A stretch of DNA of 64,000 bases from a virus. Taxonomy: Duplodnaviria > Heunggongvirae > Uroviricota > Caudoviricetes. The DNA lies in IMG/VR virus record IMGVR_UViG_2657245091_000008; one strand, given 5' to 3'. The position numbers were made by a program, and so were the translations under genes. A model generated the notes under the pieces. The model was not told where the DNA came from. It did not search any database and saw only the letters and a program-made list of their open reading frames with translations. Positions 25,596 to 38,095 of this stretch are shown in pieces; position 1 is the first letter of the stretch, and each line of letters opens with the position of its first letter.

Positions 25596-26341
25596 CAAGA
25601 ATCACTAAAGAGCGTATTTCAGATATTATTTCCCGTATCGAAATGTATGGTCACGGTGCTGGATACACAGCAGATGAAGTATTGGAGCTTGCCAAAATAG
25701 CTTTAGCGCCTTGCAAGGATGGTAAAGCTATGACACTGATTGACTTGTTAGTGAAGGAATTATCTAAGGGGCGTGGATGGCCTGATGGAAAAGATTTTTG
25801 CCATCTATCCATTACGATGCCAGGTAGTAGTCGCGCTACGGTTCTTTTTGGTACGCGCCATAAAAATTACCAATCATCAAAGAATTATTCCATTGATGGC
25901 ATTATTTGCGATATCAGTGACCTTGATCGCAGTGCGTTTACATCGGTTGTCACTCGTGAACAGTATGAAGCAGCTCGCATAGCGTCTCAGAAAGTTAAGT
26001 CTGAAAGTAAGGCTTACAAGTTAGATTTTGAGCAATGGCTGGAACAGCAACGCGGGAAAATCGATGTGGACTGCGGTTGTGTGTCTGCGGAAACATTCAT
26101 GCACTGGTTGCGGGTAGCTTATGAGGCTGGCAACCATCCGGATTTTCCGGATAGTTCCCAACAATCGCCCAAGAAAAGCGTAAAAACCACTCTGGAAAGA
26201 GGCTATCTTGAGGCCGCATTAAAGATTAAGCCGGGCCATACGCTAGGCGTCATTGATGCCATGTTGGTTCATGAAATGGCTAAGGCTTTATTGCCACTGG
26301 TAGCAGATCAACATGAGGCGAGTCATGCCAACGAAAGCTGA
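25592..26341 (+). CDS. hypothetical protein
   Basis: Start at the ATG overlapping the upstream stop; about 249 aa. Confidence 0.45.
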   Translation: MTRITKERISDIISRIEMYGHGAGYTADEVLELAKIALAPCKDGKAMTLIDLLVKELSKGRGWPDGKDFCHLSITMPGSSRATVLFGTRHKNYQSSKNYSIDGIICDISDLDRSAFTSVVTREQYEAARIASQKVKSESKAYKLDFEQWLEQQRGKIDVDCGCVSAETFMHWLRVAYEAGNHPDFPDSSQQSPKKSVKTTLERGYLEAALKIKPGHTLGVIDAMLVHEMAKALLPLVADQHEASHANES

Positions 26342-26609
26342 ACTACAGACGCGTGTAGAGGAACTTGAAAAAGAGAACGCTGGCCTCAAAAAAATGCTGG
26401 CCCGGGCAGAAAGGGAGTTGTCCGGCAAACTTCTGCCAGAAGAACTGCCACCAGCAGATATACCCGAGCGAGTGTCCCGGTGGATGAAATCTTTTTGTTT
26501 GCCGTGGGAGACTTTTTGGTGCTACGACCATCGCAGATGGTGTGATGAGCTTGATAGCAGTTTCCCCTATTTTGCGGAAGGGAACTCTTGCCCTGAATGT
26601 AGGAGTTAA
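26313..26609 (+). CDS. small coiled-coil / zinc-ribbon protein (tandem paralogue A)
   Basis: 98 aa; C-terminal W..F.C.DH..W.DELDSSFPYF...CPEC shared with the next gene. Confidence 0.45.
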   Translation: MRRVMPTKAELQTRVEELEKENAGLKKMLARAERELSGKLLPEELPPADIPERVSRWMKSFCLPWETFWCYDHRRWCDELDSSFPYFAEGNSCPECRS

Positions 26610-26914
26610 TGATGACCGGCGAGCTTTATTTTAAAATGGCACGGGAGCGGCGTGTGCATCTGGATCGGATATTTCATCTCCAGAAGAGAGTAGAAGAACT
26701 GGAACGTCGTCTGAACTGTTATCCTGTTGATATGGTGTCTGCAATACCGCCGATTCCAATAGAAATGCAGATCCGCCTATGGATGGAAGAATATGGAATG
26801 CCGTGGGAGATATTTTTCTGCTTCGACCATAAACAGTGGGTAGATGAGCTGGATAATAGTTTCCCATATTTCACAGAGAACACATGCCCAGTATGCAGGA
26901 AGAACGGAATATGA
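26609..26914 (+). CDS. small coiled-coil / zinc-ribbon protein (tandem paralogue B)
   Basis: 101 aa; same C-terminal motif (WEIFFCFDHKQWVDELDNSFPYF...CPVC). Confidence 0.45.
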   Translation: MMTGELYFKMARERRVHLDRIFHLQKRVEELERRLNCYPVDMVSAIPPIPIEMQIRLWMEEYGMPWEIFFCFDHKQWVDELDNSFPYFTENTCPVCRKNGI

Positions 26915-27435
26915 CAAAATTTGGAAAGCTGGAAGCTCATTTGCTAACTCGTAACTACCGCCATGATATACACCCATATAGACAGTGGATCGATGAAAGC
27001 GAAGGAGTAGTTACATTCCCTCTATACAGGTTTGATGGGATGTTGGCTGGGTATCAGACATATAGACCAGGTGCTCCTAAGCAGCATAGCAATCCGAAGA
27101 TGGCCCGGTATTTCACGCGATCACACGGCAGACAGTTACTTTGGGGAACCTATCTTCCTTTAAAAGATGGCCCAATATGGATAACTGAGTCTATTTTTAA
27201 GAGCGCAGCTGTACACAACGCGGGCGGCAATTCGTGGGCGCTGTTAGGTTCAACTTTCTCCGCAGGATTACGCCGTCAACTTGCGATGCTGCCGTATGAC
27301 TTTCGTGTAATAGGTGACAATGATGCGGCTGGTGAATCACTTGTGAAGTCTTTCGGAAAAGGTTTTGTGGCCCCGGATCTTGACGAGCTACAACCACATG
27401 AAGTGTCTCATTTGATTTTTAGCCATAGCCAATAA
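26911..27435 (+). CDS. Toprim-domain protein
   Basis: Conserved ITES...VIGDNDAAG (Toprim Glu and DxD) arrangement; start overlaps the upstream stop. Confidence 0.45.
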   Translation: MTKFGKLEAHLLTRNYRHDIHPYRQWIDESEGVVTFPLYRFDGMLAGYQTYRPGAPKQHSNPKMARYFTRSHGRQLLWGTYLPLKDGPIWITESIFKSAAVHNAGGNSWALLGSTFSAGLRRQLAMLPYDFRVIGDNDAAGESLVKSFGKGFVAPDLDELQPHEVSHLIFSHSQ

Positions 27436-28144: not shown

Positions 28145-28366
28145 ATGCAGTCCATTAACTTCCGTACCGCGCGCGGCAACCTTTCTGAATTGCTCAACAA
28201 TGTTGAAGCCGGGGAAGAGGTTGAAATCACCCGCAGAGGCCGTGAACCAGCAGTAATTGTCAGCAAGGCTACTTTCGAAGCCTACAAAAAGGCGGCGCTG
28301 GATGCTGAATTTGCATCCCTGTTTGACACCCTGGACTCCACCAACAAGGAACTGGTTAACCGATAA
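28145..28366 (+). CDS. phd: antitoxin Phd
   Basis: 73-aa product [39 protein letters not shown]...; GAGGTG Shine-Dalgarno; overlaps the doc start. Confidence 0.9.
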
Positions 28367-28746
28367 TGAGGCATATATCACCGGAAGAACTTATTGCGCT
28401 TCATGATGCGAATATAAGCCGCTACGGCGGCCTGCCGGGAATGTCAGATCCGGGTAGGGCAGAGGCCATTATCGGGAGAGTTCAGGCCAGAGTTGCCTAC
28501 GAAGAGATCACCGACCTTTTCGAAGTCTCCGCAACCTACCTGGTGGCTACTGCGAGAGGGCATATATTCAATGATGCCAATAAGCGTACCGCGCTAAACA
28601 GTGCGCTGCTATTTCTACGCCGTAACGGTATACAGGTATATGATTCTCCCGTGCTGGTGGAACTTGCGGTGGGGGCTGCAACTGGTGAAATCCCCGTATC
28701 TTCAGTAGCGGAAAAACTACGTGAACTATATGGTTCCAATATTTGA
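28366..28746 (+). CDS. doc: toxin Doc (Fic family)
   Basis: 126-aa product [22 protein letters not shown]..., recognisable as P1 Doc. Confidence 0.9.
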
Positions 28747-28781
28747 AAAGAAGCCCGCTCAACCAGGCGGGCTTCCTACTA

Positions 28782-29888
28782 TCACTCAATGATTTTTTCT
28801 GCTGTCAGCCAGCTAATTTCTTGCCTGTCTTTCGGCGGTTTTAGCATGTGGGCGTATTCAGCAACATTCTCCCACGGAATTGTTTTTGCCCACTCAACGA
28901 TAGCATTGTGATCTGCAGTGAAGAGTGGAATGGTGTGCGATTTCAACCACTCCAATGTTGTAACGCCATGTTTTTTGGCGTGGTGCTGTGCATGATGCCG
29001 GGCTATCACTCGTAATGGCATTATCCATTCACTACCATCAGGCATCGAAAAGCGCATTGTCTTCGGCATATCTGATTCAAGAACAGCCTCCCTAATACCA
29101 GGAAACTCACCAAGAACCATACGACGGTAGTAATCGCTGTTTTTACCACCATATATTTCTGCAATGTTATCAAGATAACCTTGAGAAATAATGGGGGTAT
29201 CTTCTGCGTTCAGCTTGATGGCTGTATAAATACCACATGGATTTTCTTCTGATTTAGCACGACCATGATGGGAATCGTAAAAGTGTCCATGCTCCTCCTC
29301 TGAAGGAGCGGACATTAAAAGTATACGTGAATCGTCACTTACTAACGATGCTCTTAACATGCTGAATAGCCGATCGCCAGCAAGAGCCGCCTCCGTAACA
29401 ATGATTAAAAGATGTTCAGCATAATATCCACCGAAACCTTCCTCATAATTTCGGTGATATGGCTTAATTTCGCAGCCCCAATATTCCCGGTAACGATGAT
29501 TGATGCCGTTTCCATCGACTTTAAAATATTCTCCCAGCAATGGGATTCTGTTACTGACTCTATCCCAATACGTACTTATGTATTGGATAACTTGCCTGCG
29601 ACAATTATAGAACTTTGGGGAAACAATAACCGTTTTAGACTCAGGCATCAGGATTGTATAAAGAATACTAATTATAGCGATAACCGTCTTTTGGCCTATC
29701 CCTTCAGGAGTGGTGACGCTGACTGCTGAACCTTTTTGTTGAATCGCCTCAACAATTAGCTTTTGCTGGTGGGTTAACTTAACACCCATCAACTCTTCTG
29801 CTGCTAATGCCCAGTCATGGCTATATTTGCTTACCAGCTCTCTCCACTCTGGTAATTCGGTGATGTTTTTAGGCGTCAGCATCAGCAT
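28782..29888 (-). CDS. terminase-large-subunit (PacB)-like ATPase paralogue
   Basis: Region GFGGYYAEHLLIIVTEAALAGDR...LLMSAPSEEEHGHFYDSHHGRAKSEENPCGIYTAIKLNAEDTP aligns by eye with the PacB core at 35223-36731; Walker-B-like DEAS is replaced by TEAA. Confidence 0.5.
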   Translation of the reverse strand: MLMLTPKNITELPEWRELVSKYSHDWALAAEELMGVKLTHQQKLIVEAIQQKGSAVSVTTPEGIGQKTVIAIISILYTILMPESKTVIVSPKFYNCRRQVIQYISTYWDRVSNRIPLLGEYFKVDGNGINHRYREYWGCEIKPYHRNYEEGFGGYYAEHLLIIVTEAALAGDRLFSMLRASLVSDDSRILLMSAPSEEEHGHFYDSHHGRAKSEENPCGIYTAIKLNAEDTPIISQGYLDNIAEIYGGKNSDYYRRMVLGEFPGIREAVLESDMPKTMRFSMPDGSEWIMPLRVIARHHAQHHAKKHGVTTLEWLKSHTIPLFTADHNAIVEWAKTIPWENVAEYAHMLKPPKDRQEISWLTAEKIIE

Positions 29889-30675
29889 CCTCCGCTACCT
29901 CTGCCTCCACATCTGCCGCGACTTCATCGGACTGTTCTTCTTTGGCCTGTTCTGCAATCGCCGCACGGCATTTGGCCCTTGCTGTGGCGATTGCTTCAGC
30001 ACGCACATCATCAGGAATCGTTGACGTGATATACATATCCAGTTCTTCGGCGCGGAACACTGTTTGGTCCAGATATTCGCGTAGCATCCAGGTAAATTCG
30101 AAATCACACGCGATAATCTCTGCGCTACCTTCTGCACCATTTGGGAAATGAATAAATGCCTGTTTAGCCAAACCGATAACACGACATGCGGTTGCCAAAA
30201 CAGCGACAACCAGATTTACATTTTCACACGCTACGGGCTGATTAACGCCGGAGATTACTCCATTTAACTGTCGGTTATATGGAAGGTAGTTTGAGATGCG
30301 TTCTACGCGCCATGTGCCAGTCAGGCTGCCATTTTTAAAGATAATTGGTGTAACGGATAGCCCAAGCTCGCGTATAAGTCGTTGCGCTATAGCAGGATCA
30401 TTAAACAGGTCTAATGCTACACATTCGAAAGACTGCGCAAGGGCAAACAGTTCTTCCAGAGAGTAGTCTTTGCCCCTGGCGGTGATGTAACGACGAACGC
30501 CGCTGTCTGCATCACTCCATATAGCTACGCCATGCTCTTCATTCAGTTCTTCATTAAAGCCGAGATACGTCATGATAGTGCGTTCAATCGTGTCAAACGG
30601 CAGTGACATGTCGGCGTTAACAGCCACCAGCAGGCCATTACGCAAGCGGTATTGAATTGTTTTGGTGCTTTCCAT
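29869..30675 (-). CDS. hypothetical protein with acidic C-terminal tail
   Basis: 268-aa ORF in the dre operon. Confidence 0.45.
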   Translation of the reverse strand: MESTKTIQYRLRNGLLVAVNADMSLPFDTIERTIMTYLGFNEELNEEHGVAIWSDADSGVRRYITARGKDYSLEELFALAQSFECVALDLFNDPAIAQRLIRELGLSVTPIIFKNGSLTGTWRVERISNYLPYNRQLNGVISGVNQPVACENVNLVVAVLATACRVIGLAKQAFIHFPNGAEGSAEIIACDFEFTWMLREYLDQTVFRAEELDMYITSTIPDDVRAEAIATARAKCRAAIAEQAKEEQSDEVAADVEAEVAEDADADA

Positions 30676-30681
30676 GTCAAA

Positions 30682-31338
30682 TTACTCCACTACAAACCAG
30701 TCACATGCCAGTAAATCAGCAACAGACGGCAACCAAACGTTGTCTATATTTTGCGCATCCTTCAATACAAAATGGTCGCCATAAGGAACCTGAATGTCGT
30801 GGAAATTGACGCACCCAGCTAGAACTAACCAGCAGCATTGCTTTTCGCCTTTCCACCCGCGTCGAGATACCTTTCTTCCTTCTTTCAACCACGTCAGCGC
30901 GACAGAAAAGTCGGCTGCTTCAAGGTCGATTTCTTCTTGTTGGGTAGTGATACCACCAGCAGAAATAGTTACGTCCCTGGCTGTAATGAATGTCACCCCA
31001 TTGTGACCTTCAATCCTGAGCGATACCCCATTTTCGAAGATGTCGTTAGTTCGACTAAAGCCATCTTTAAATTTCTTTTCTGATAAACAGGACAGATGAC
31101 CTTCTTCATCAACGACAAGATAGCCGCCAACTTGTGGTAGGTGTTTTTGCAAAAACATTGCATCAACATAGATTCTTACTCCTTTGGGTTCTGTGACCTC
31201 GATTTCACCACAATTAGGCATCACAGGAGTAATACCACCGATGTATTTGATATTCTTGATTTTCGATGCACTAACGTTTTTGTGAGCTTTGTATTTGGGA
31301 AGGAACTTAAAAAGCTCTTTCGTTGCCATGTTATTCAT
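30682..31338 (-). CDS. protein with C-terminal DUF2829 (Tad2-like) domain
   Basis: C-terminal FSVALTWLKEGRKVSRRGWKGEK matches the DUF2829 pattern A..LK.G.KV.R.GW.G. Confidence 0.45.
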   Translation of the reverse strand: MNNMATKELFKFLPKYKAHKNVSASKIKNIKYIGGITPVMPNCGEIEVTEPKGVRIYVDAMFLQKHLPQVGGYLVVDEEGHLSCLSEKKFKDGFSRTNDIFENGVSLRIEGHNGVTFITARDVTISAGGITTQQEEIDLEAADFSVALTWLKEGRKVSRRGWKGEKQCCWLVLAGCVNFHDIQVPYGDHFVLKDAQNIDNVWLPSVADLLACDWFVVE

Positions 31339-31352
31339 AGTCTTTTCTCTGC

Positions 31353-31847
31353 TTATAACTTTTCGTACTGAAGCGGTGAACGCTTAATTTCAAAGTGGCC
31401 TTCCGATGTGCTACCAAAGCCACCAGCACCACGTTCCGTTTCGTTGAGTTCCTCAACCTCGACTAGTGAGACTTGTTCAACACGCTCAAAAATGCCTTGC
31501 ATGACAGCCATTCCAGGCTTGAGACAAACGCCTTCCCCGCCGGGATCAGTAATCAGTTTTGCCATGATTTCACCGCGATAATCGGAGTCGATAATTCCTA
31601 CGCAGTTAGCCAGGCGAGTATGTTTTTTGCAGCCCAATCCGGATCGCGGATAGAGTTTCAGACACCAGCCGGGCGGGATCTCCATAGCCAGTCCGGTATA
31701 CACCCACCAGCTTGAGGAAATTGCACCATTGCTATCGACGCATGGTTTTATTTCAACAGCCTCAAAATCCATCGCCGCCGATCCGGAGGTGGCATAAGCT
31801 GGAAGTTTTGCTGCCGGATGTAGGCGTTTCACTTTTACGTAAATCAT
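31353..31847 (-). CDS. dut: dUTPase
   Basis: dUTPase motifs GIIDSDYRGE (motif III) and RGAGGFGSTSEG (motif V). Confidence 0.7.
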   Translation of the reverse strand: MIYVKVKRLHPAAKLPAYATSGSAAMDFEAVEIKPCVDSNGAISSSWWVYTGLAMEIPPGWCLKLYPRSGLGCKKHTRLANCVGIIDSDYRGEIMAKLITDPGGEGVCLKPGMAVMQGIFERVEQVSLVEVEELNETERGAGGFGSTSEGHFEIKRSPLQYEKL

Positions 31848-32320
31848 TGTTTTTTAGCTCTCTGCGTGAAGGTGTAAACCCGACGTTTGATATGTGGAAC
31901 GGTAGGAACAGGAAGACAGGAACTTTCAATAACTCCTTGCTCCTCCAGCGATCGCACCGCCCGCAAGAACTGCGACGTGTCGCCGCCAAACTGGCGGGCA
32001 TAGGTGCTGCCGTTATGAAGTATTTGAGCTATTACCCGAGCTTTTGTCTGGCTGACACGATATGCGAATAGCCGCACGGCCTCTTCTGGCGCAATCGCTA
32101 ACTGATAGCCTTTCCCGGCACGGTGTCGAATGAATCCATGCGCCAGTAGGTTTTTGAGTTCGTTACGAGTGCGAACAGATCCGTAATCCAGGAAGTGTGG
32201 ATTGATAACGACTGGCTTAAACCATTCCGTAGGTGCTTTAGCTAATAGAGCTAACAGCTTCCCGGATAATTCTGGATAGGAAGACGGGTAACAATTCAGA
32301 GATGGGTAATAAGTTTTCAC
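31844..32320 (-). CDS. hypothetical protein
   Basis: 158-aa ORF, coupled. Confidence 0.45.
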   Translation of the reverse strand: MKTYYPSLNCYPSSYPELSGKLLALLAKAPTEWFKPVVINPHFLDYGSVRTRNELKNLLAHGFIRHRAGKGYQLAIAPEEAVRLFAYRVSQTKARVIAQILHNGSTYARQFGGDTSQFLRAVRSLEEQGVIESSCLPVPTVPHIKRRVYTFTQRAKKQ

Positions 32321-32661
32321 CGACGCCCCCTTGCAGGATATCGACCTGCATTAGTATCCGGTGCAATAAAGCCGGTAGTGGGGCGAGTGAAAGCGAGATT
32401 AATCTTCTCGACCATAGTGCGATAATTTTCCTGATAGTGGGCCAGGAGTTTTTCGGCGGCAATGATGGTTACTTTCCGGACGTAGCTTTCTGCTTCCTCC
32501 AGATTTCGCCAGTTTTTTTCGAGGGTAAACACAGGGACGGCCTCAAGCCCGGTCATGATGCCGAACACAACGACAGCATGACTGTTCTTAACACCAGCGG
32601 CGAAGGTTACGGTGTAACCATCCACCTTGAAGCGTCTTGATTCCGTGATTTGACTCTGCAA
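32317..32661 (-). CDS. hypothetical protein
   Basis: 114-aa ORF; operator-like site directly upstream. Confidence 0.45.
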   Translation of the reverse strand: MQSQITESRRFKVDGYTVTFAAGVKNSHAVVVFGIMTGLEAVPVFTLEKNWRNLEEAESYVRKVTIIAAEKLLAHYQENYRTMVEKINLAFTRPTTGFIAPDTNAGRYPARGRR

Positions 32662-32706
32662 AGCACCCTCCTAAATAGGCGAGGGTACTTTACAGCAAAG
32701 GCGTTA

Positions 32707-32726
32707 ATCTAAAAAGATGTGTTAGA
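32707..32726. promoter_or_regulatory. operator-like site
   Basis: GTGTTAGAAATTTAAT between the recombinase stop and the next gene start. Confidence 0.45.
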
Positions 32727-32734
32727 AATTTAAT

Positions 32735-33763
32735 TTACGAATCCATCAGGCGGCTATTAGCCCCCACAGACACGCCGCCACGGCGAAGATACCGCATAAG
32801 TGTTTCCGGTTTCTTCCAGGTTCCTTCCTGCATGATCTCCACCATAGACACCTGCTTTTCAGCCATATCAATAGCGGCCCCGACGCGTGCACTATGCCCG
32901 GTCCACGTCCGGTATCTTCCTTTGTTTGGCGTAGCATCTCTTTTATTCAGCAACACCCAGGCGTCGCTGAATATTTTCTCCATTGCAGGTGCAGTAAGGG
33001 GTGTTGTCGTGATCCTGGCCTTATTGCTACGGTGTATCGGCGGGAACAGCACTGCGTCAGGATGTTCGCGAAGCCCGGAAACATCCAGCCAGTCATTCAG
33101 CACAGCGGTAGTGCGACGGGAAAGCACCTTATCAAGCCCGGCGGCGGTCGTTATTGTCTTCGTGTGTGAAATATGTAGCGTGACAGTGTCACCTGTTTGA
33201 TCCAGATCTCCTACACGAATACGCGAGATTTCCGACATACGCATCAGCGTATTGTATGCAACAAAGAGAAAAGCCCGGTTGCGCAGGTCCACCAGCCGTT
33301 CTGACCTGGACAACAGGACGTCGAGCAGTTTCAGATCGTCCCACCGAAGCGGTATAGCCTGGCCTGTTCGTTCGCCTTTTTCAGTTGCCGCTTCGCGCCG
33401 GATGCGCCGCATAGCCAGAGAAACACTTTTATCATCCGAAAGTGGCGGAAGACCACAATGCGAAAGCAGCATGTTCAGCATGGCGTAGTGCTTATCAATG
33501 GTGGTCGAAGCCAGATCGGCATCATGCAGCTGAAGAAAATACTCGCGGGCCATTTCTGGTGAGATCGGAAACCAGGCAAGCTGGCGAGCGTGACACCAGC
33601 GCGCCCAGGAATGAAACACCAACCGGAGGTCGCGCAGAGTATTCGGCGCATAAGCCCCCTGGTCATTCATGAACCGCATAAAGTTTTCTGCGGCTTCCTG
33701 GTACTCTTTGCCAATGTTGCGCAGAAAACCACCGGAACTGCCAGAGATAATTAATTCACTCAT
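32735..33763 (-). CDS. dre: Cre-family tyrosine recombinase (Dre-like)
   Basis: 342 aa; blocks aligning with Cre by eye (AFLFVAYNTLMRMSEISRIRVGDL; TWTGHSARVGAAIDMA with catalytic-region His/Arg, C-terminal Tyr region); a rox-type site about 150 bp upstream. Confidence 0.8.
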   Translation of the reverse strand: MSELIISGSSGGFLRNIGKEYQEAAENFMRFMNDQGAYAPNTLRDLRLVFHSWARWCHARQLAWFPISPEMAREYFLQLHDADLASTTIDKHYAMLNMLLSHCGLPPLSDDKSVSLAMRRIRREAATEKGERTGQAIPLRWDDLKLLDVLLSRSERLVDLRNRAFLFVAYNTLMRMSEISRIRVGDLDQTGDTVTLHISHTKTITTAAGLDKVLSRRTTAVLNDWLDVSGLREHPDAVLFPPIHRSNKARITTTPLTAPAMEKIFSDAWVLLNKRDATPNKGRYRTWTGHSARVGAAIDMAEKQVSMVEIMQEGTWKKPETLMRYLRRGGVSVGANSRLMDS

Positions 33764-33915
33764 GAAACTATTTGACCTCTATATACAGATGACGCTACGC
33801 GAAAAATATAAAAATGACAGGGTAGCTATAAGTTAATTTTCAAAATACAAGCCTTTGATTCGAGGCACGTATTTTCAGTGATGTCAACACTGTTCATCTA
33901 CACATGATTATAGCC

Positions 33916-33947
33916 TAACTTTAAATAATGCCAATTATTTAAAGTTA
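33916..33947. other. rox-like recombination target site (14-bp inverted repeats, 4-bp spacer)
   Basis: TAACTTTAAATAAT-GCCA-ATTATTTAAAGTTA, a perfect inverted repeat; arms begin TAACTT like loxP arms; matches the published rox site as I recall it. Confidence 0.75.
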
Positions 33948-34044
33948 CAGAATGGCGATTTTTTTTAATCCATCATAGATTGATTTTGACCAGTAACACG
34001 TTGCCTTCATGGTCTTTAATTTGCGAAGTGTGGTTTATACAGTT

Positions 34045-34145
34045 GGTTTTCTAAAATTGATGACAAAAAATCACAGTTCGATCCTTTACTCACTCTGTTA
34101 TTCGACATAAATTTGTCATAGTAATTTTATGTTAGAAAACTAAAT
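34045..34145. promoter_or_regulatory. two operator-like sites in the promoter of the candidate repressor gene
   Basis: GGTTTTCTAAAATTGA (34045-34060) and ATGTTAGAAAACTAAAT (34129-34145), the second only 12 bp before the start codon. Confidence 0.5.
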
Positions 34146-34157
34146 CGAGTAGGAATA

Positions 34158-35195
34158 ATGAGTAAGAAGTCGATCGAGAAAGAGTACAAACGGTTCCTGC
34201 AAACCGCTGAACGGTGGAAAGAGCTGGTGGTCGCAAACTCTGTTTTCCATGATACCAGTTATGCTGGCGAGGAATTCCGCCATGTTGCATTAACGCATGA
34301 CCAAAACATATTAGAAGAAGCTGAAAAATGTCTTGCTGAATGGAAAGCCTTCGTTGACATGTGCCGCGATGCCGACGGCAAAGCGTCGAACATTGTTGAG
34401 TCTGTATATTCTCCGATCCCATTCATCATTGAGGACACCAATCAAAGCACGCATGTTGTTGTGCAAAGCGCTACAACAACACGTACATTTACACGTGAAC
34501 AATTGCTCAAAAAATACGACAAAATCATAAAGAAAAGCCTGAAAAATAGGGTTTTTTCTCAAATTGTAGGTGCTCTTGAAGAAGAACAGCGCTTCTTTGA
34601 AGCTGAGCCTGAAGGCGAGATCTACCGGGCGCGTAAAGAGGCATATACAGATGTTGTGCTGACAACAAACATCGAAGGCAGCAATGCCCTTTCTCGCTTT
34701 AGAGTTGGCGCACATGGCGCATTGGTTTTCGCAAGACTACCGAAGACAACGATCCCCGTTGTCAATAATGTTGGTGAACGCCGGAGCATTACAATTTATT
34801 CAGGCGTCGAATCGGTACCTTGCAGCCTTCTCGGCGATTTTAACTTATATCGTGTTCGTGACCTGGAAAAACACCAGCCAAGCTACGTTGCGAAGTCGTA
34901 CATCTTAAGGAACATCGATATTCGCAATGAAAGCCTTAAGCAGAAATCCGCTAAGATGCTGGAGGATGCCGATCCGGCTATTCGCCATATCATTGAGCGT
35001 AAGATACGTACATCACGTGAAGCAATGGCAAGGCTGGATAAAATGGATCTGGAATTGTTAGACGTAATGATGGCCTCTGGAGACGACCTGACCGGCATTA
35101 AACTGAATGAAGCTCGTAAAAAATACGGCAAAGCAATCGAAGAACGTTACGGATACACATTCCCCCAAACGCAGTACGCCGCGAAGCTCTGGTAA
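34158..35195 (+). CDS. candidate master (C1-analogous) repressor
   Basis: 345-aa ORF at the c1 position (convergent with pacB, beside the rox site) with two operator-like motifs just upstream; no similarity to P1 C1 that I can recognise by eye. Confidence 0.35.
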   Translation: MSKKSIEKEYKRFLQTAERWKELVVANSVFHDTSYAGEEFRHVALTHDQNILEEAEKCLAEWKAFVDMCRDADGKASNIVESVYSPIPFIIEDTNQSTHVVVQSATTTRTFTREQLLKKYDKIIKKSLKNRVFSQIVGALEEEQRFFEAEPEGEIYRARKEAYTDVVLTTNIEGSNALSRFRVGAHGALVFARLPKTTIPVVNNVGERRSITIYSGVESVPCSLLGDFNLYRVRDLEKHQPSYVAKSYILRNIDIRNESLKQKSAKMLEDADPAIRHIIERKIRTSREAMARLDKMDLELLDVMMASGDDLTGIKLNEARKKYGKAIEERYGYTFPQTQYAAKLW

Positions 35196-35203
35196 TCACA
35201 ACC

Positions 35204-35224
35204 GGCCCCGCATCGCGGGGCTTT
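35204..35224. terminator. bidirectional terminator hairpin between convergent genes
   Basis: CCCCGC-atc-GCGGGG hairpin flanked by T-rich sequence. Confidence 0.5.
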
Positions 35225-36731
35225 ATATATCCAGATCTGGCATTTCGATATCCGCCAGAACCTGATCTCGGAAAGTTGCCATTTCGGCACCAATATCTTC
35301 ATTAGCAGGCACATAGTCCACCAGCATAGTGAAGCAGTAGGTATCCCATCGGTCAGGCGATTTGATGTTTAGCTTTTGCCGCATGTGCTCTTTGCGCATC
35401 ATCGCCATTTTCCCTTCCTCATTCAGTAAAAAGGGGATTTTTGACGCTTGCTCTGCCGTTTTAGGGTCACTGTCTATCCGCATACGCCCTGACTTTATGG
35501 CATCACGCGCCATAATATTTGCGTAGGCACGCTGATTAACAAATCGCTCCCTGTCTTTGTTCGCAAACATGGGTTTTCCCCACCGAATACGTACCGGGTT
35601 CGCACCACGACGCACCAACTGCGCACACGTATCAGAACCAAAACCATCGGCATCAACCGCGATTGTTATATTCGGGTATTTTTCCGGCGTACATTCGTTA
35701 TATATAAAGTCAGCAAAGGCCAATGGGTCCATAGTGCCAGGCATCTCCATTACCTTAAAGTTAACAACGCGCCGCTTATCCCTGTGACCAGATACCTTGC
35801 AGATGTTGAGGACCGACTTATCTCGCCCATTACCAACGTCAGCCGTTGCCACCCATCCCCAGTTTTTCTCCAACAACACCTTGCGGCGAGCAGCGCGATC
35901 GCATTCATCACGACCAAGCAAATAGCCGTTAATTTCTCGTGGGAACTGACCAAGCACCTTGACCATATACTCAATAGAATCGCGCCCACCATATTCCAGA
36001 AGCTTCTGCTTGATGAATTGTGGTGTGACGAACGGTGATTCTTCCGAGTTAAGAACAATTGCTGTCCAGATCCCTTTCGGGTTGTCTGGGGTTTTTGCTT
36101 GAGAATGGTGCGAATCGTAGAAATAACCACTTGGCCTTGTTGGCTGGGATAGCATCAACATCCGGTTATCTTCTTCAGTAAGAGCACCGGTCATTACGCC
36201 GATCGCCTTATCAGATATACCAGATGCTTCATCCAGAATTAGAAGCAAATGTGCCGCGTGTTCCCCCGCCAGCGCTTCTTCGTTGCCGAGTCGATAACCT
36301 TTGCAGAGAACTTCCCAAATCCCCTTACGGGAGCGCTCATAAAACATGGTGTCAGAGAGGACAAAATAGGTCTGCAACCACCCATGACGCTTAACTGCAT
36401 TCGCCCAATACTGTTTAACGTATTTGAATACGCCTGTTTTTACCTGGCCTATCTTGTTAGCAACAATGATGACACGGGCATCGGGGAACAGGATCATAAA
36501 AATCAACAGCAACATCGCGGTAAGGGACGACTTCCCCGTTCCGTGTCCGGACGTGACGGTCGTCCTACTCCCCGTTTCCTGCACTGACTGAATGATCTGC
36601 TGCTGCTGGTGGGAGGGGAACATCCCAAAAATATCGACAACAGCCTGGGTAAAGTTGTAGCGGTATTTGATTACCATATCGCGCCAGCGTGGATCGCTGG
36701 TGACGCATTTAATCTTGCGCCCGCCAGCCAT
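35223..36731 (-). CDS. pacB: terminase large subunit PacB
   Basis: 502 aa; Walker A TSGHGTGKSS, Walker B LLLILDEASG, C-terminal nuclease-like region; directly after pacA. Confidence 0.8.
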   Translation of the reverse strand: MAGGRKIKCVTSDPRWRDMVIKYRYNFTQAVVDIFGMFPSHQQQQIIQSVQETGSRTTVTSGHGTGKSSLTAMLLLIFMILFPDARVIIVANKIGQVKTGVFKYVKQYWANAVKRHGWLQTYFVLSDTMFYERSRKGIWEVLCKGYRLGNEEALAGEHAAHLLLILDEASGISDKAIGVMTGALTEEDNRMLMLSQPTRPSGYFYDSHHSQAKTPDNPKGIWTAIVLNSEESPFVTPQFIKQKLLEYGGRDSIEYMVKVLGQFPREINGYLLGRDECDRAARRKVLLEKNWGWVATADVGNGRDKSVLNICKVSGHRDKRRVVNFKVMEMPGTMDPLAFADFIYNECTPEKYPNITIAVDADGFGSDTCAQLVRRGANPVRIRWGKPMFANKDRERFVNQRAYANIMARDAIKSGRMRIDSDPKTAEQASKIPFLLNEEGKMAMMRKEHMRQKLNIKSPDRWDTYCFTMLVDYVPANEDIGAEMATFRDQVLADIEMPDLDI

Positions 36732-38095
36732 TAATCATCCTCCGGCGGTTCTATCGCGATATCATCATCTCCGGCGTCATACCCTGCATCAGATGCATCA
36801 TAATCACCGTAAATTTCAGCCGTTGCCGAAGGGTCAATATCCAGCTCTTCGTCGTTGGCCTCGAATTCTCCAGCTTTACGCTCGCCATTGCGGTCGTAAT
36901 CTCCGCACCCCAATTCTTCAACAATGGTTGCCACATCCGCCCGGCGCTCTGCCAGCCATTGCGGATGGTTAGCCTGAAGCGTTGCAAACTCCCTTGCCTC
37001 TTTGTCCAGCTGTTCATCATCAACATCATTGACGTCAGAAACAGGTGGTTCGAGAAGAGTGATAGCTTTCGCCGCGCGCGCCGCGAGGATAGCCGGGACG
37101 CTGACCCCCTGGCGCTCGATGTATTCAGCAACACCGATATCATCCAGTTCCTCGCGCTCACGCATACGTATAGCGGCGGCGATAACTCTGGCAGCGCGTG
37201 CGTCAGCGCCAATGCGATATTCAATCTCTTTGCCACGCTGTTCGGCCTGTAGGCGTGCTAATTCGAGTTTTTCTCTGGCCTCAGCCTCTTTGAATGCTTG
37301 CTGGCGAGCGCTCTGACGAAGCTTTTCATCCCCCTGTCGCAGCTTTTGTTCGGACTGATATATAGCTGCCAACCTACTGATAAAATCATTCATGTAGTAG
37401 GCCGCGTCACTGATTAGACCGAGAAGGCGCTGCCCAGGGTGCATTCCTTCTGGCTCTTTATCGCCCAAGGCGTCTATTTCCGCCTGTAGACGTTCGGCCT
37501 CCTGATCAACAATGCTTTGATACTGAAGTGCGCGCTCTTGCGCCATTTGAATTGCTAACCGCAGGTGTTCTTCTGCGCCGTTCTTCATCATATCGCGAGC
37601 CACATTCGTAGTGGGCAATGTGGCACGCTGCACAGCACCGCCAGGGATCATTGCTGAAGATCCCTCAATTTTTGGGGCGCTTTTATCTTCTTCGGGGATC
37701 ATTTTCGCCATTTTTTCGCGCAATGATCTCCTGACAGATTCTTTTATCTCATTGTTATTATTGGTATTACTTTCATGATCCGAAGTTTTCTTTCTTGGCA
37801 TACTTCGGAAAGAACCTGCACCCTGCGAATTGTCAATTTCTGTAAATTTTGTTTTTTCTGCACCCTCTTCCAGCTTTTTTGTTGCTCTTCCCGCCCGTTT
37901 TTTTTCAGGTGATTTGGTGCTTTTTTTTGTTGTCTTTACCTGCGACCGCACCTCATTTTTTTTCATATTGAGATGCTTTCTGGCTGTATTGAAGCTAAGA
38001 CCATGCTCCTCACAGTATTCCTTTACAGTGATCCCTTTTTCTTCACGCAACGCTATAAAGCGGGCGCGGTGCTCCTCCCAATTAACCAGACTCAT
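36731..38095 (-). CDS. pacA: terminase small subunit PacA
   Basis: 454 aa; N-terminal HTH-like region (MSLVNWEEHRARFIALREEKGITVKEYCEEHGLS), acidic C-terminus; 1-bp overlap with pacB. Confidence 0.7.
   Translation of the reverse strand: MSLVNWEEHRARFIALREEKGITVKEYCEEHGLSFNTARKHLNMKKNEVRSQVKTTKKSTKSPEKKRAGRATKKLEEGAEKTKFTEIDNSQGAGSFRSMPRKKTSDHESNTNNNNEIKESVRRSLREKMAKMIPEEDKSAPKIEGSSAMIPGGAVQRATLPTTNVARDMMKNGAEEHLRLAIQMAQERALQYQSIVDQEAERLQAEIDALGDKEPEGMHPGQRLLGLISDAAYYMNDFISRLAAIYQSEQKLRQGDEKLRQSARQQAFKEAEAREKLELARLQAEQRGKEIEYRIGADARAARVIAAAIRMREREELDDIGVAEYIERQGVSVPAILAARAAKAITLLEPPVSDVNDVDDEQLDKEAREFATLQANHPQWLAERRADVATIVEELGCGDYDRNGERKAGEFEANDEELDIDPSATAEIYGDYDASDAGYDAGDDDIAIEPPEDD

Follow-up and report, generated by a model that had tools for sequence, protein, structure and literature searches.

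Introduction

In tailed phages, the gene for the large terminase subunit is regarded as a single-copy hallmark, and the protein is a major target of the pattern-recognition immunity of bacteria. Some non-enzymatic proteins interfere with terminase by binding; examples are the TerS-like redirectors of phage-inducible chromosomal islands (PICI) and the Ppi protein of Staphylococcus aureus pathogenicity islands (SaPI). These proteins are encoded by satellites and target, or mimic, the small subunit. The protein described here differs on both counts. Its gene lies in IMG/VR virus record IMGVR_UViG_2657245091_000008 (Caudoviricetes), at the end of a predicted operon headed by the recombinase gene dre. 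The whole stretch that we analysed, 64,000 nucleotides long, is referred to below as the window. The product is a paralogue of PacB, the large terminase encoded by the same window. It mimics the ATPase domain of the large subunit and is carried inside a complete phage-plasmid, so the likeness to the PICI and SaPI hijackers is one of concept.

A closer parallel is found in phage T4. According to passages of a recent report, the terminase ATPase domain alone activates the immune sensor EcAvs2, which contacts the ATP bound by that domain (PMC13601566). The same passages describe T4 vs.8 as a paralogue of the terminase ATPase domain that triggers EcAvs2, and suggest that such proteins are possibly anti-defence factors (PMC13601566). 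As characterised there, vs.8 is like the PacB paralogue in being an extra phage-encoded terminase ATPase domain that lacks a nuclease, accompanies a true terminase and is found in one phage lineage (PMC13601566). Conversely, both Walker motifs are intact in vs.8, which is of T4-type terminase origin, whereas the family of the paralogue derives from PacB, has lost both motifs and often carries a further, fused module. On this comparison, made by description, vs.8 appears to be the closest functional analogue of the paralogue.

Results

The window encodes a second protein with the PacB ATPase domain

Around the gene, 72% of the query matches Escherichia phage D6, at 96% identity. The paralogue itself is 100% identical to a protein on the E. 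coli plasmid NZ_AP027414.1. Hence, the window is a D6-type member of the P1 phage-plasmid group. Phage D6 is the source of the Dre recombinase, and P1/D6-type phage-plasmids are frequent in E. coli and Salmonella from clinical and livestock sources.

An initial annotation of the window, made from its letters and open reading frames (ORFs), proposed that a 368 amino acid (aa) protein aligns with the ATPase core of PacB. The similarity between the two proteins is far above chance. In BLASTP comparisons, residues 7–263 of the paralogue are 34% identical to the window PacB (502 aa; E=2e-52), and tblastn matched the paralogue to PacB of P1, P7 and D6 at E=1e-44 to 1e-49. The shared part corresponds to the N-terminal 265 residues and has the additional strand, catalytic glutamate (ASCE) ATPase fold. 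It also contains the family motifs QQ, FYDSHH, LNxEDSP and YGG-x5-Y-x5-G-x-F. PacB proteins of the P1, P7 and D6 type match the Pfam family Terminase_6N weakly and belong to PHROG 2. The paralogue is instead covered over its whole length by the profile of PHROG 5902 (E=1.7e-133; residues 7–367 on profile positions 3–358 of 359), which carries the database label 'unknown function'. Searches of the ORF against Pfam, NCBIfam and PADLOC gave nothing useful.

Structures were compared as well. An AlphaFold2 model of the paralogue, built from a 34-sequence alignment, had a mean predicted local distance difference test (pLDDT) score of 91.6. The top Foldseek matches in the Protein Data Bank (PDB) were the ATPase domains of the P74-26, T4 gp17, Sf6 gp2, HK97 and D6E large terminases, all with a probability of 1.0. 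The proposed relationship to PacB was therefore borne out at the level of both sequence and predicted fold.

The gene has two candidate ATG start codons. A GGAGG sequence abuts the first and lies 6 nucleotides (nt) before the second, at position 29882. Database homologues, such as P0001 (366 aa), begin at the residue that matches the second ATG. Because of this spacing and the starts of the homologues, the true start is probably at 29882, giving a protein of 366 aa. Residue numbers below count from the first ATG.

Residues for ATP binding and hydrolysis are lost throughout a clade

We next considered the catalytic motifs. The Walker A sequences of PacB (GHGTGKS) and the paralogue (PEGIGQK) align in register, and the Lys of PacB is replaced by Q66. 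In the model, the P-loop helix begins at residue 66, where the Lys is expected. The Walker B sequence LLLILDEAS of PacB corresponds to LLIIVTEAA, so that T165 takes the place of the Asp and E166 is kept. This is the change from DE to TE that had been noted in the initial annotation. The damage extends further than that account allowed. Besides Walker B, the paralogue has lost the Walker A Lys, the Thr of motif III (the coupling motif, APS rather than the QPT of PacB) and the invariant His of the AGEHA motif (His156).

To place these losses we collected homologues. A word-indexed search returned only 7–9 proteins, either for the full protein or for the family profile. Hence, 1.84 billion representative proteins were searched exhaustively with HMMER instead. 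There were 905 matches, and the 145 that contain the N-domain of the paralogue were aligned. Among these, 125 are canonical, with the Walker A Lys and a D/E-E pair in Walker B; their median length is 498 aa and they are true terminases. A further 17 are truly degenerate, a count that excludes one intein-containing terminase and two fragments. All 17 are 230–444 aa long and all lack a nuclease domain. In a neighbour-joining tree, 12 degenerate members, including the window protein, form one clade that contains no canonical member, and this clade is set within the PacB-type terminases. In one large protein from the search, the PacB-type terminase P0092 (875 aa), ~370 aa are inserted directly after the GK of Walker A. 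The insertion ends in ...LTHN|S and resembles an intein in the P-loop.

Losses in the clade were scored at positions where seven canonical relatives all have the same residue. The Walker A Lys is found in all seven and in none of the 12 clade members. No clade member retains His156 or the motif III Thr either, and two of the 12 retain the catalytic Glu. Conversely, residues G63, G65, F122, W137, G154, F203, P232, Y254 and F262, which are structural, are retained in 11 or 12 of the 12 members, as is the QQ motif upstream of the P-loop. The replacements follow no common scheme. The Walker B pairs of the clade are TE, AE, MD, VD, IN, LN, VN, TD, PN, LH, PQ and PD; elsewhere in the clade, the Lys position and the residue after it read RP, ET, TT, MH, TH, TN or IS. 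Since the replacement residues vary between members, no alternative active site appears to have evolved. The pattern of conservation along the domain has also changed. The catalytic core (residues 61–200) is the best conserved part among PacB proteins (54–62%) and the least conserved part in the clade (35–37%). Within the clade, the lid region (residues 201–265) is conserved best, at 53%.

Catalytic residues and nuclease are thus gone throughout the clade while structural residues stay, which is the signature of a pseudo-enzyme. Judged by its sequence, the paralogue is a pseudo-ATPase; the fold and the structural residues have been kept and the residues for ATP binding and hydrolysis have been lost. 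We also scored the protein for six features that define the TerL/PacB family. The ATPase fold is present. The other five, namely the Walker A P-loop (GxxxxGK[ST]), Walker B (hhhhDE), motif III, the RNase H-like nuclease domain and a position beside pacA, the gene for the small (recognition) subunit, are not. By these features, the paralogue is homologous to large terminases but is not a functional member of their family.

A different module stands in place of the nuclease domain

The initial annotation had the nuclease region as missing. In a BLASTP comparison, residues 269–368 of the paralogue have no similarity to the C-terminal half of PacB (PacB residues 265–502). The nuclease is indeed absent; what had been overlooked is that a foreign domain occupies its place. 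This C-terminal module (C-module) matches the C-terminal end of PHROG 17928, also labelled 'unknown function' (residues 270–368; E=8e-14). At E<=1e-3, a profile of the module matched at least 1,329 clusters. Of the 120 clusters listed, nearly all are proteins of ~100 aa that stand alone and have neither a name nor a Pfam domain. Hence, relatives of the module are mostly single-domain proteins, whereas the paralogue fuses the module to a pseudo-ATPase. An alignment of eight C-module sequences has 13 invariant columns, and the pattern MPDGS-W-VP...PLF...W...W...W is present. When modelled alone (pLDDT 84), the module is predicted to be a small alpha/beta domain with a beta-hairpin, four helices and two strands. 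A search of BFVD with the module found uncharacterised phage proteins only, a PDB profile search was empty and a Pfam search gave nothing. Together with the lack of any alignment to the C-terminal half of PacB, these results led us to reject a diverged nuclease domain.

Free-standing copies of the C-module are found in early or accessory regions: right after a DnaB-type helicase gene in a phage-plasmid, in the nin region of lambdoid prophages, near int and in other early operons. We considered a specific link between the C-module and the DnaB-type helicase. Such a link is seen in some contexts, including one with the fused form, and is missing in three others. A description as 'early/accessory region' was used in its place.

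The two domains behave as modules. Contigs L005 and L010 are syntenic phage-plasmid sequences with ~80% nucleotide identity. In L010, the C-module (98 aa) stands alone after dnaB. At the orthologous locus of L005, ~800 nt encoding a pseudo-ATPase have been inserted ahead of the C-module, and a fused protein of 365 aa results. Another D6-type element has, at its dre-operon locus, an N-domain-only protein of 266 aa. In the P0025 lineage the order is permuted, with the C-module before the pseudo-ATPase. Thus, each module is found by itself, and fusions exist in both orders.

Further observations were made at these loci. In L009 (8001–10384), the relative with the permuted order is cut off by a transposase gene of the Tn3 family that lies on the other strand, and a gene for an AbiH-domain protein lies a few kb away. 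In L006 (8001–9013), the N-domain-only protein P0014 (264 aa) is preceded by a radical-SAM gene and is translationally coupled to a strongly hydrophobic ORF of 73 aa. In L025 (5336–6792), from a phage-plasmid lineage of ~84 kb, the N-domain-only gene for P0011 overlaps by 4 nt the stop of a gene for a Ref-like RecA-dependent nuclease. A gene for a Cre-like integrase lies upstream of the P0011 gene, an arrangement reminiscent of the dre operon in the window.

The paralogue is accessory, maintained and subject to allele exchange

Phages D6 and P1 do not encode the paralogue; in D6, the small gene pdcA sits between doc and the gene for the IsaA-like protein. Among records in the plasmid database PLSDB, we found a PacB homologue in 760, an IsaA-like gene in 461 and the paralogue in 164. 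About 78% of PacB-bearing plasmids therefore do without it. The paralogue is accessory and dispensable. Where present, it is kept. Full length is retained in 162 of the 164 records and, in the D6-type plasmids examined, the gene is always the last in the dre operon. In comparisons of the window with two D6-type plasmids, ratios of non-synonymous to synonymous substitution rates (dN/dS) were 0.48 and 0.27 for the N-domain and 0.19 and 0.08 for the C-domain. These values indicate that the paralogue is under purifying selection.

The same two plasmids reveal a local break in conservation. A region of 6.7 kb is 98–100% identical between the window and both plasmids, except at 30010–29110. This segment, comprising the 3' end of the IsaA-like gene and the pseudo-ATPase domain, falls to 61–87% identity in one plasmid and 46–74% in the other. 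In the C-module, identity returns to 94–99%. Synonymous divergence (dS) is 0.29 and 1.41 in the variable N-domain, against 0.07–0.10 in the C-module. The high dS values point to an exchange of alleles that diverged long ago, with the boundary between the domains as the breakpoint, rather than to rapid point mutation. Positive selection as the source of the N-domain divergence is unsupported; dS is raised as well and dN/dS is below 1, so the divergence stems from recombination between old alleles. PacA and PacB of these two plasmids are 99–100% identical to those of the window. Where PacA and PacB agree to this degree between plasmids, aa identity in the N-domain ranges from 53 to 100%.

Two other segments vary in the neighbourhood. 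The N-terminal half of the Tad2-like protein (about 31300–30800) is a second island of divergence, with 62–88% nt identity to a plasmid that is otherwise 98–100% identical, and phage D6 has only a 146 aa C-terminal part of this protein. The acidic tail of the IsaA-like protein (...EEQSDEVAADVEAEVAEDADADA; window 29869–29940, minus strand) lies inside the recombining block and differs from the D6 version.

Genomic context and predicted expression

The features of the locus are listed in Table 1. All genes from dre to the paralogue are on one strand, with gaps of 0–73 nt or overlaps. Upstream of dre, the match at 33934–33907 is the sole strong promoter-like site on the minus strand of the interval 28300–34300. 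This tight layout, with the promoter-like site at one end and a hairpin at the other, fits the earlier proposal that the paralogue closes an operon headed by a Cre-like recombinase gene. It suggests that the paralogue is transcribed with dre, dut and the genes for the Tad2-like and IsaA-like proteins, and not with the late packaging genes. The gene had also been placed far from pacAB. That description does not hold, as pacB ends only 5.3 kb away, beyond dre and a gene for a c1-type repressor.

Table 1. Coordinates of the paralogue, its motifs and the surrounding features in the window.
Feature	Position	Strand	Details
Paralogue, whole ORF	28782..29888	-	368 aa from first ATG; stop codon 28782-28784
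N-terminal predicted pseudo-ATPase domain	29085..29888	-	Residues 1-268; homologous to PacB/large-terminase ATPase domain
Degenerate Walker A/P-loop	29685..29708	-	Residues 61-68, PEGIGQKT; Q66 in Lys column and P61 in Gly column of canonical relatives
Degenerate Walker B	29385..29411	-	Residues 160-168, LLIIVTEAA; Asp replaced by T165, Glu166 retained
C-terminal module	28785..29084	-	Residues 269-368, ~100 aa; in place of nuclease domain
IsaA-like gene	29869..30675	-	268 aa; directly upstream, stop overlaps paralogue start by 14-20 nt
Tad2-like/DUF2829 protein	30682-31338	-	218 aa; C-terminal domain Pfam E=6.6e-17
dUTPase (dut)	31353-31847	-	dre operon
Two unassigned ORFs	32317-32661 and 31844-32320	-	dre operon
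dre recombinase	32735-33763	-	First gene of operon (whole rest of operon 30682..33763)
Sigma-70-like promoter match	33907..33934	-	TTGGCA, 16 nt spacer, TATAAT; 11/12; upstream of dre
Terminator-like hairpin	28753..28768	-	GCCCGC...GCGGGC and T-run; 14 nt past stop, between paralogue and convergent doc
Resident true terminase (comparator)	35223..38095	-	pacB 35223-36731, 502 aa, GHGTGKS/LDEAS intact; pacA 36731-38095, 454 aa

A version of the paralogue that is 49% identical occurs in genomes of the P1 type. Together with a homologue of IsaA, it occupies the known isaA-IS1-isaB variable region, between ssb and hxr. A match to the C1 operator lies ahead of ssb in this context; the sequence from there to the gene has no terminator-like site, and a hairpin with a 10 bp stem comes after the gene. 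Because of the operator match and the absence of a terminator-like site, the P1-type context suggests early, repressor-controlled expression. In the 64 kb window, no match to the P1-type C1 operator (ATTGCTCTAATAAATTT) was found with up to 3 mismatches (<=3), consistent with a different, D6-type repressor. A repressor gene encoding 345 aa lies beside pacB (34158–35195, plus strand); a close homologue in contig L024 carries the Pfam family Phage_P7_repressor_C1.

Two proposals about the neighbours were rejected. The IsaB protein of P1 is not a remnant of the paralogue truncated by IS1; the two have no similarity. Nor is the IsaA-like protein an obligatory partner, as it is missing upstream of P0007, P0011 and P0014. 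A partial gene upstream of P0009 has no similarity to the IsaA-like protein, and P1 and D6 have IsaA without the paralogue. Elsewhere in the window, adjacent ORFs at 26313–26609 and 26609–26914 (plus strand; 98 and 101 aa) are apparent tandem paralogues. They share a C-terminal motif, ...W(E/C)...FxxDH(R/K)xWxDELDxSFPYFxExxxCPxCR, and are followed by an ORF for a toprim-domain protein (26884–27435).

Discussion

A proposed non-catalytic terminase mimic

We suggest that the paralogue is a non-catalytic mimic of terminase with a role in conflict, a best reading to which we give a probability of roughly 35%. Stripped of its catalytic residues and nuclease, the protein would be able neither to translocate nor to cut DNA, and so probably acts through binding and not as an enzyme. 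Its resemblance to the terminase ATPase domain might let it occupy whatever normally recognises that domain. A role in conflict is favoured because the gene is accessory, because N-domain alleles are exchanged while PacA and PacB stay constant and because the neighbours are of early or anti-defence type. The upstream neighbour but one, with its Tad2-like (Thoeris anti-defence 2) domain, is counted as such context. The leading candidate for a binding partner would be a host immune sensor of terminase ATPase domains, of the Avs1-3 or Upx type. Such a sensor could be engaged or evaded by a mimic that is free of ATP, with the activating interface, which depends on ATP, left incomplete. The next candidate is the packaging motor of a rival P1-like element, which might be poisoned. 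The most specific form of the proposal is that an inert mimic, made early and before PacB, occupies or blunts the terminase-sensing receptors Avs1-3 and Upx. Loss of the ATP site would then take away the ligand that those receptors need, and swapping of N-domain alleles would reflect an arms race with sensor variants. By itself, we regard this specific form as rather doubtful.

Several observations weigh against a conflict role of this kind. For a terminase-like protein, triggering an Avs sensor may be no less likely than blocking one, and T4 vs.8 is an example of a trigger. In the passages of the report cited above, Upx tolerates terminases with Walker B mutations (PMC13601566). The PADLOC search of the paralogue returned 0 families at E<=0.1. 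The diversity of the N-domain is due to recombination of old alleles, as the high dS indicates, and is not demonstrated positive selection. The neighbours are mostly genes of DNA metabolism, namely dre, dut, ssb, ban/dnaB and the gene for a Ref-like nuclease, and these would fit a role in replication or recombination equally well. Finally, the promoter, terminator and operator assignments are matches to consensus sequences and are not proof of transcription.

Alternative explanations

If the target were a rival, heteroimmune P1-, P7- or D6-type element in the same cell, the paralogue could act as a dominant-negative subunit that co-assembles with the motor, or competes for PacA or portal, and so stalls the pentameric motor to the benefit of the carrier. 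Inactive subunits can poison ring ATPase motors. Features shared with PacB are retained in the paralogue, namely fold, N-terminal helices and lid, and it is the lid that is best conserved. Its accessory distribution and diverse alleles beside an unchanged PacA and PacB also fit, as does the predicted non-late expression of the operon in the D6-type context. However, the clade is monophyletic and about equally distant (34–36% identity) from D6-type and P1-type PacB, no allele has the look of a mimic of one given rival, and the motor of the carrier itself would be threatened too. We consider this explanation possible but unlikely. The same may be said of an accessory role in early DNA metabolism, with the C-module as the functional core and the pseudo-ATPase as an added scaffold for DNA binding or oligomerisation, in replication, recombination or plasmid maintenance. 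C-domain proteins far outnumber the fused form and are found in early regions. Fused and N-only forms lie beside dre/cre-like recombinase genes, dut, ssb, ban-like dnaB or the gene for a Ref-like RecA-dependent nuclease and, at the orthologous locus of L005 and L010, the N-domain was inserted upstream of a pre-existing C-domain gene. Against this, N-domain-only proteins are maintained without the C-domain, and the N-domain thus has a function of its own. The neighbours are also inconsistent, with the DnaB linkage failing in three contexts, and the C-domain has no DNA-binding motif or fold match in Pfam, BFVD or the PDB profile search. Conflict, poisoning of a rival motor and re-use in DNA metabolism may each be correct.

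The initial annotation offered two interpretations, a regulatory decoy and an inactive paralogue. Regulation of the element's own packaging would mean that the protein titrates PacA, or caps PacB, to prevent premature cleavage at pac in the plasmid-prophage state, or that it times packaging. The homology to PacB does span regions that could contact PacA, and transcription from a recombinase-headed operon would be separate from that of pacAB. Yet the viable phages P1 and D6 lack the gene, as do about 78% of PacB-bearing plasmids, and the N-domain differs by up to 47% of its aa where PacA and PacB are 99–100% identical. Because viable relatives lack the gene and the variable domain does not track the resident terminase, we find such regulation improbable. 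The description as inactive is right in the enzymatic sense, as all motifs for ATP hydrolysis are lost across the clade. A residual ATPase activity through a non-canonical site, for instance K67 shifted by one position together with E166, is very improbable. The window allele does have a Lys directly after Q66 and keeps the Glu, and the QQ motif persists in 11 or 12 of the 12 members, but the residues at the Lys position and in Walker B vary, with no alternative catalytic set conserved across the clade. 'Inactive' is wrong if it is taken to mean a decaying remnant. Loss of the catalytic motifs and the nuclease domain is what a functionless, slowly decaying duplicate of pacB would display. Conversely, the frame is intact in 162 of 164 records, dN/dS is well below 1, the fold is predicted with confidence, structural residues are conserved over a deep clade and a second conserved domain has been gained. 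The decaying-remnant explanation is effectively refuted.

Significance

Searches of the literature for any description of the P1/D6 paralogue family found none, and databases give the family no function or a wrong one. The 'terminase large subunit' of MH422554.1 (16006–17100) is a member of the same family, 49% identical to the paralogue, and the family is no terminase. That entry and MH445380.1 are mis-annotated; the ATPase motifs and the nuclease domain are missing from both. Such mis-annotation can mislead marker-based phage phylogeny and the typing of phage-plasmids.

Roughly one in five P1/D6-type phage-plasmids carries a copy of terminase that is catalytically dead, as predicted from its motifs, and maintained by selection. 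The paralogue points to undescribed biology around the packaging motor, be it immune evasion, interference between elements or re-use of a fold. Why phages encode terminase-like proteins that are not terminases, such as T4 vs.8 and Ksap1/2, is a question of 2026 for which the paralogue offers a tractable model within P1 genetics. If the decoy reading were true, this would be the first anti-defence protein made by duplicating and disarming the sensor's own target.

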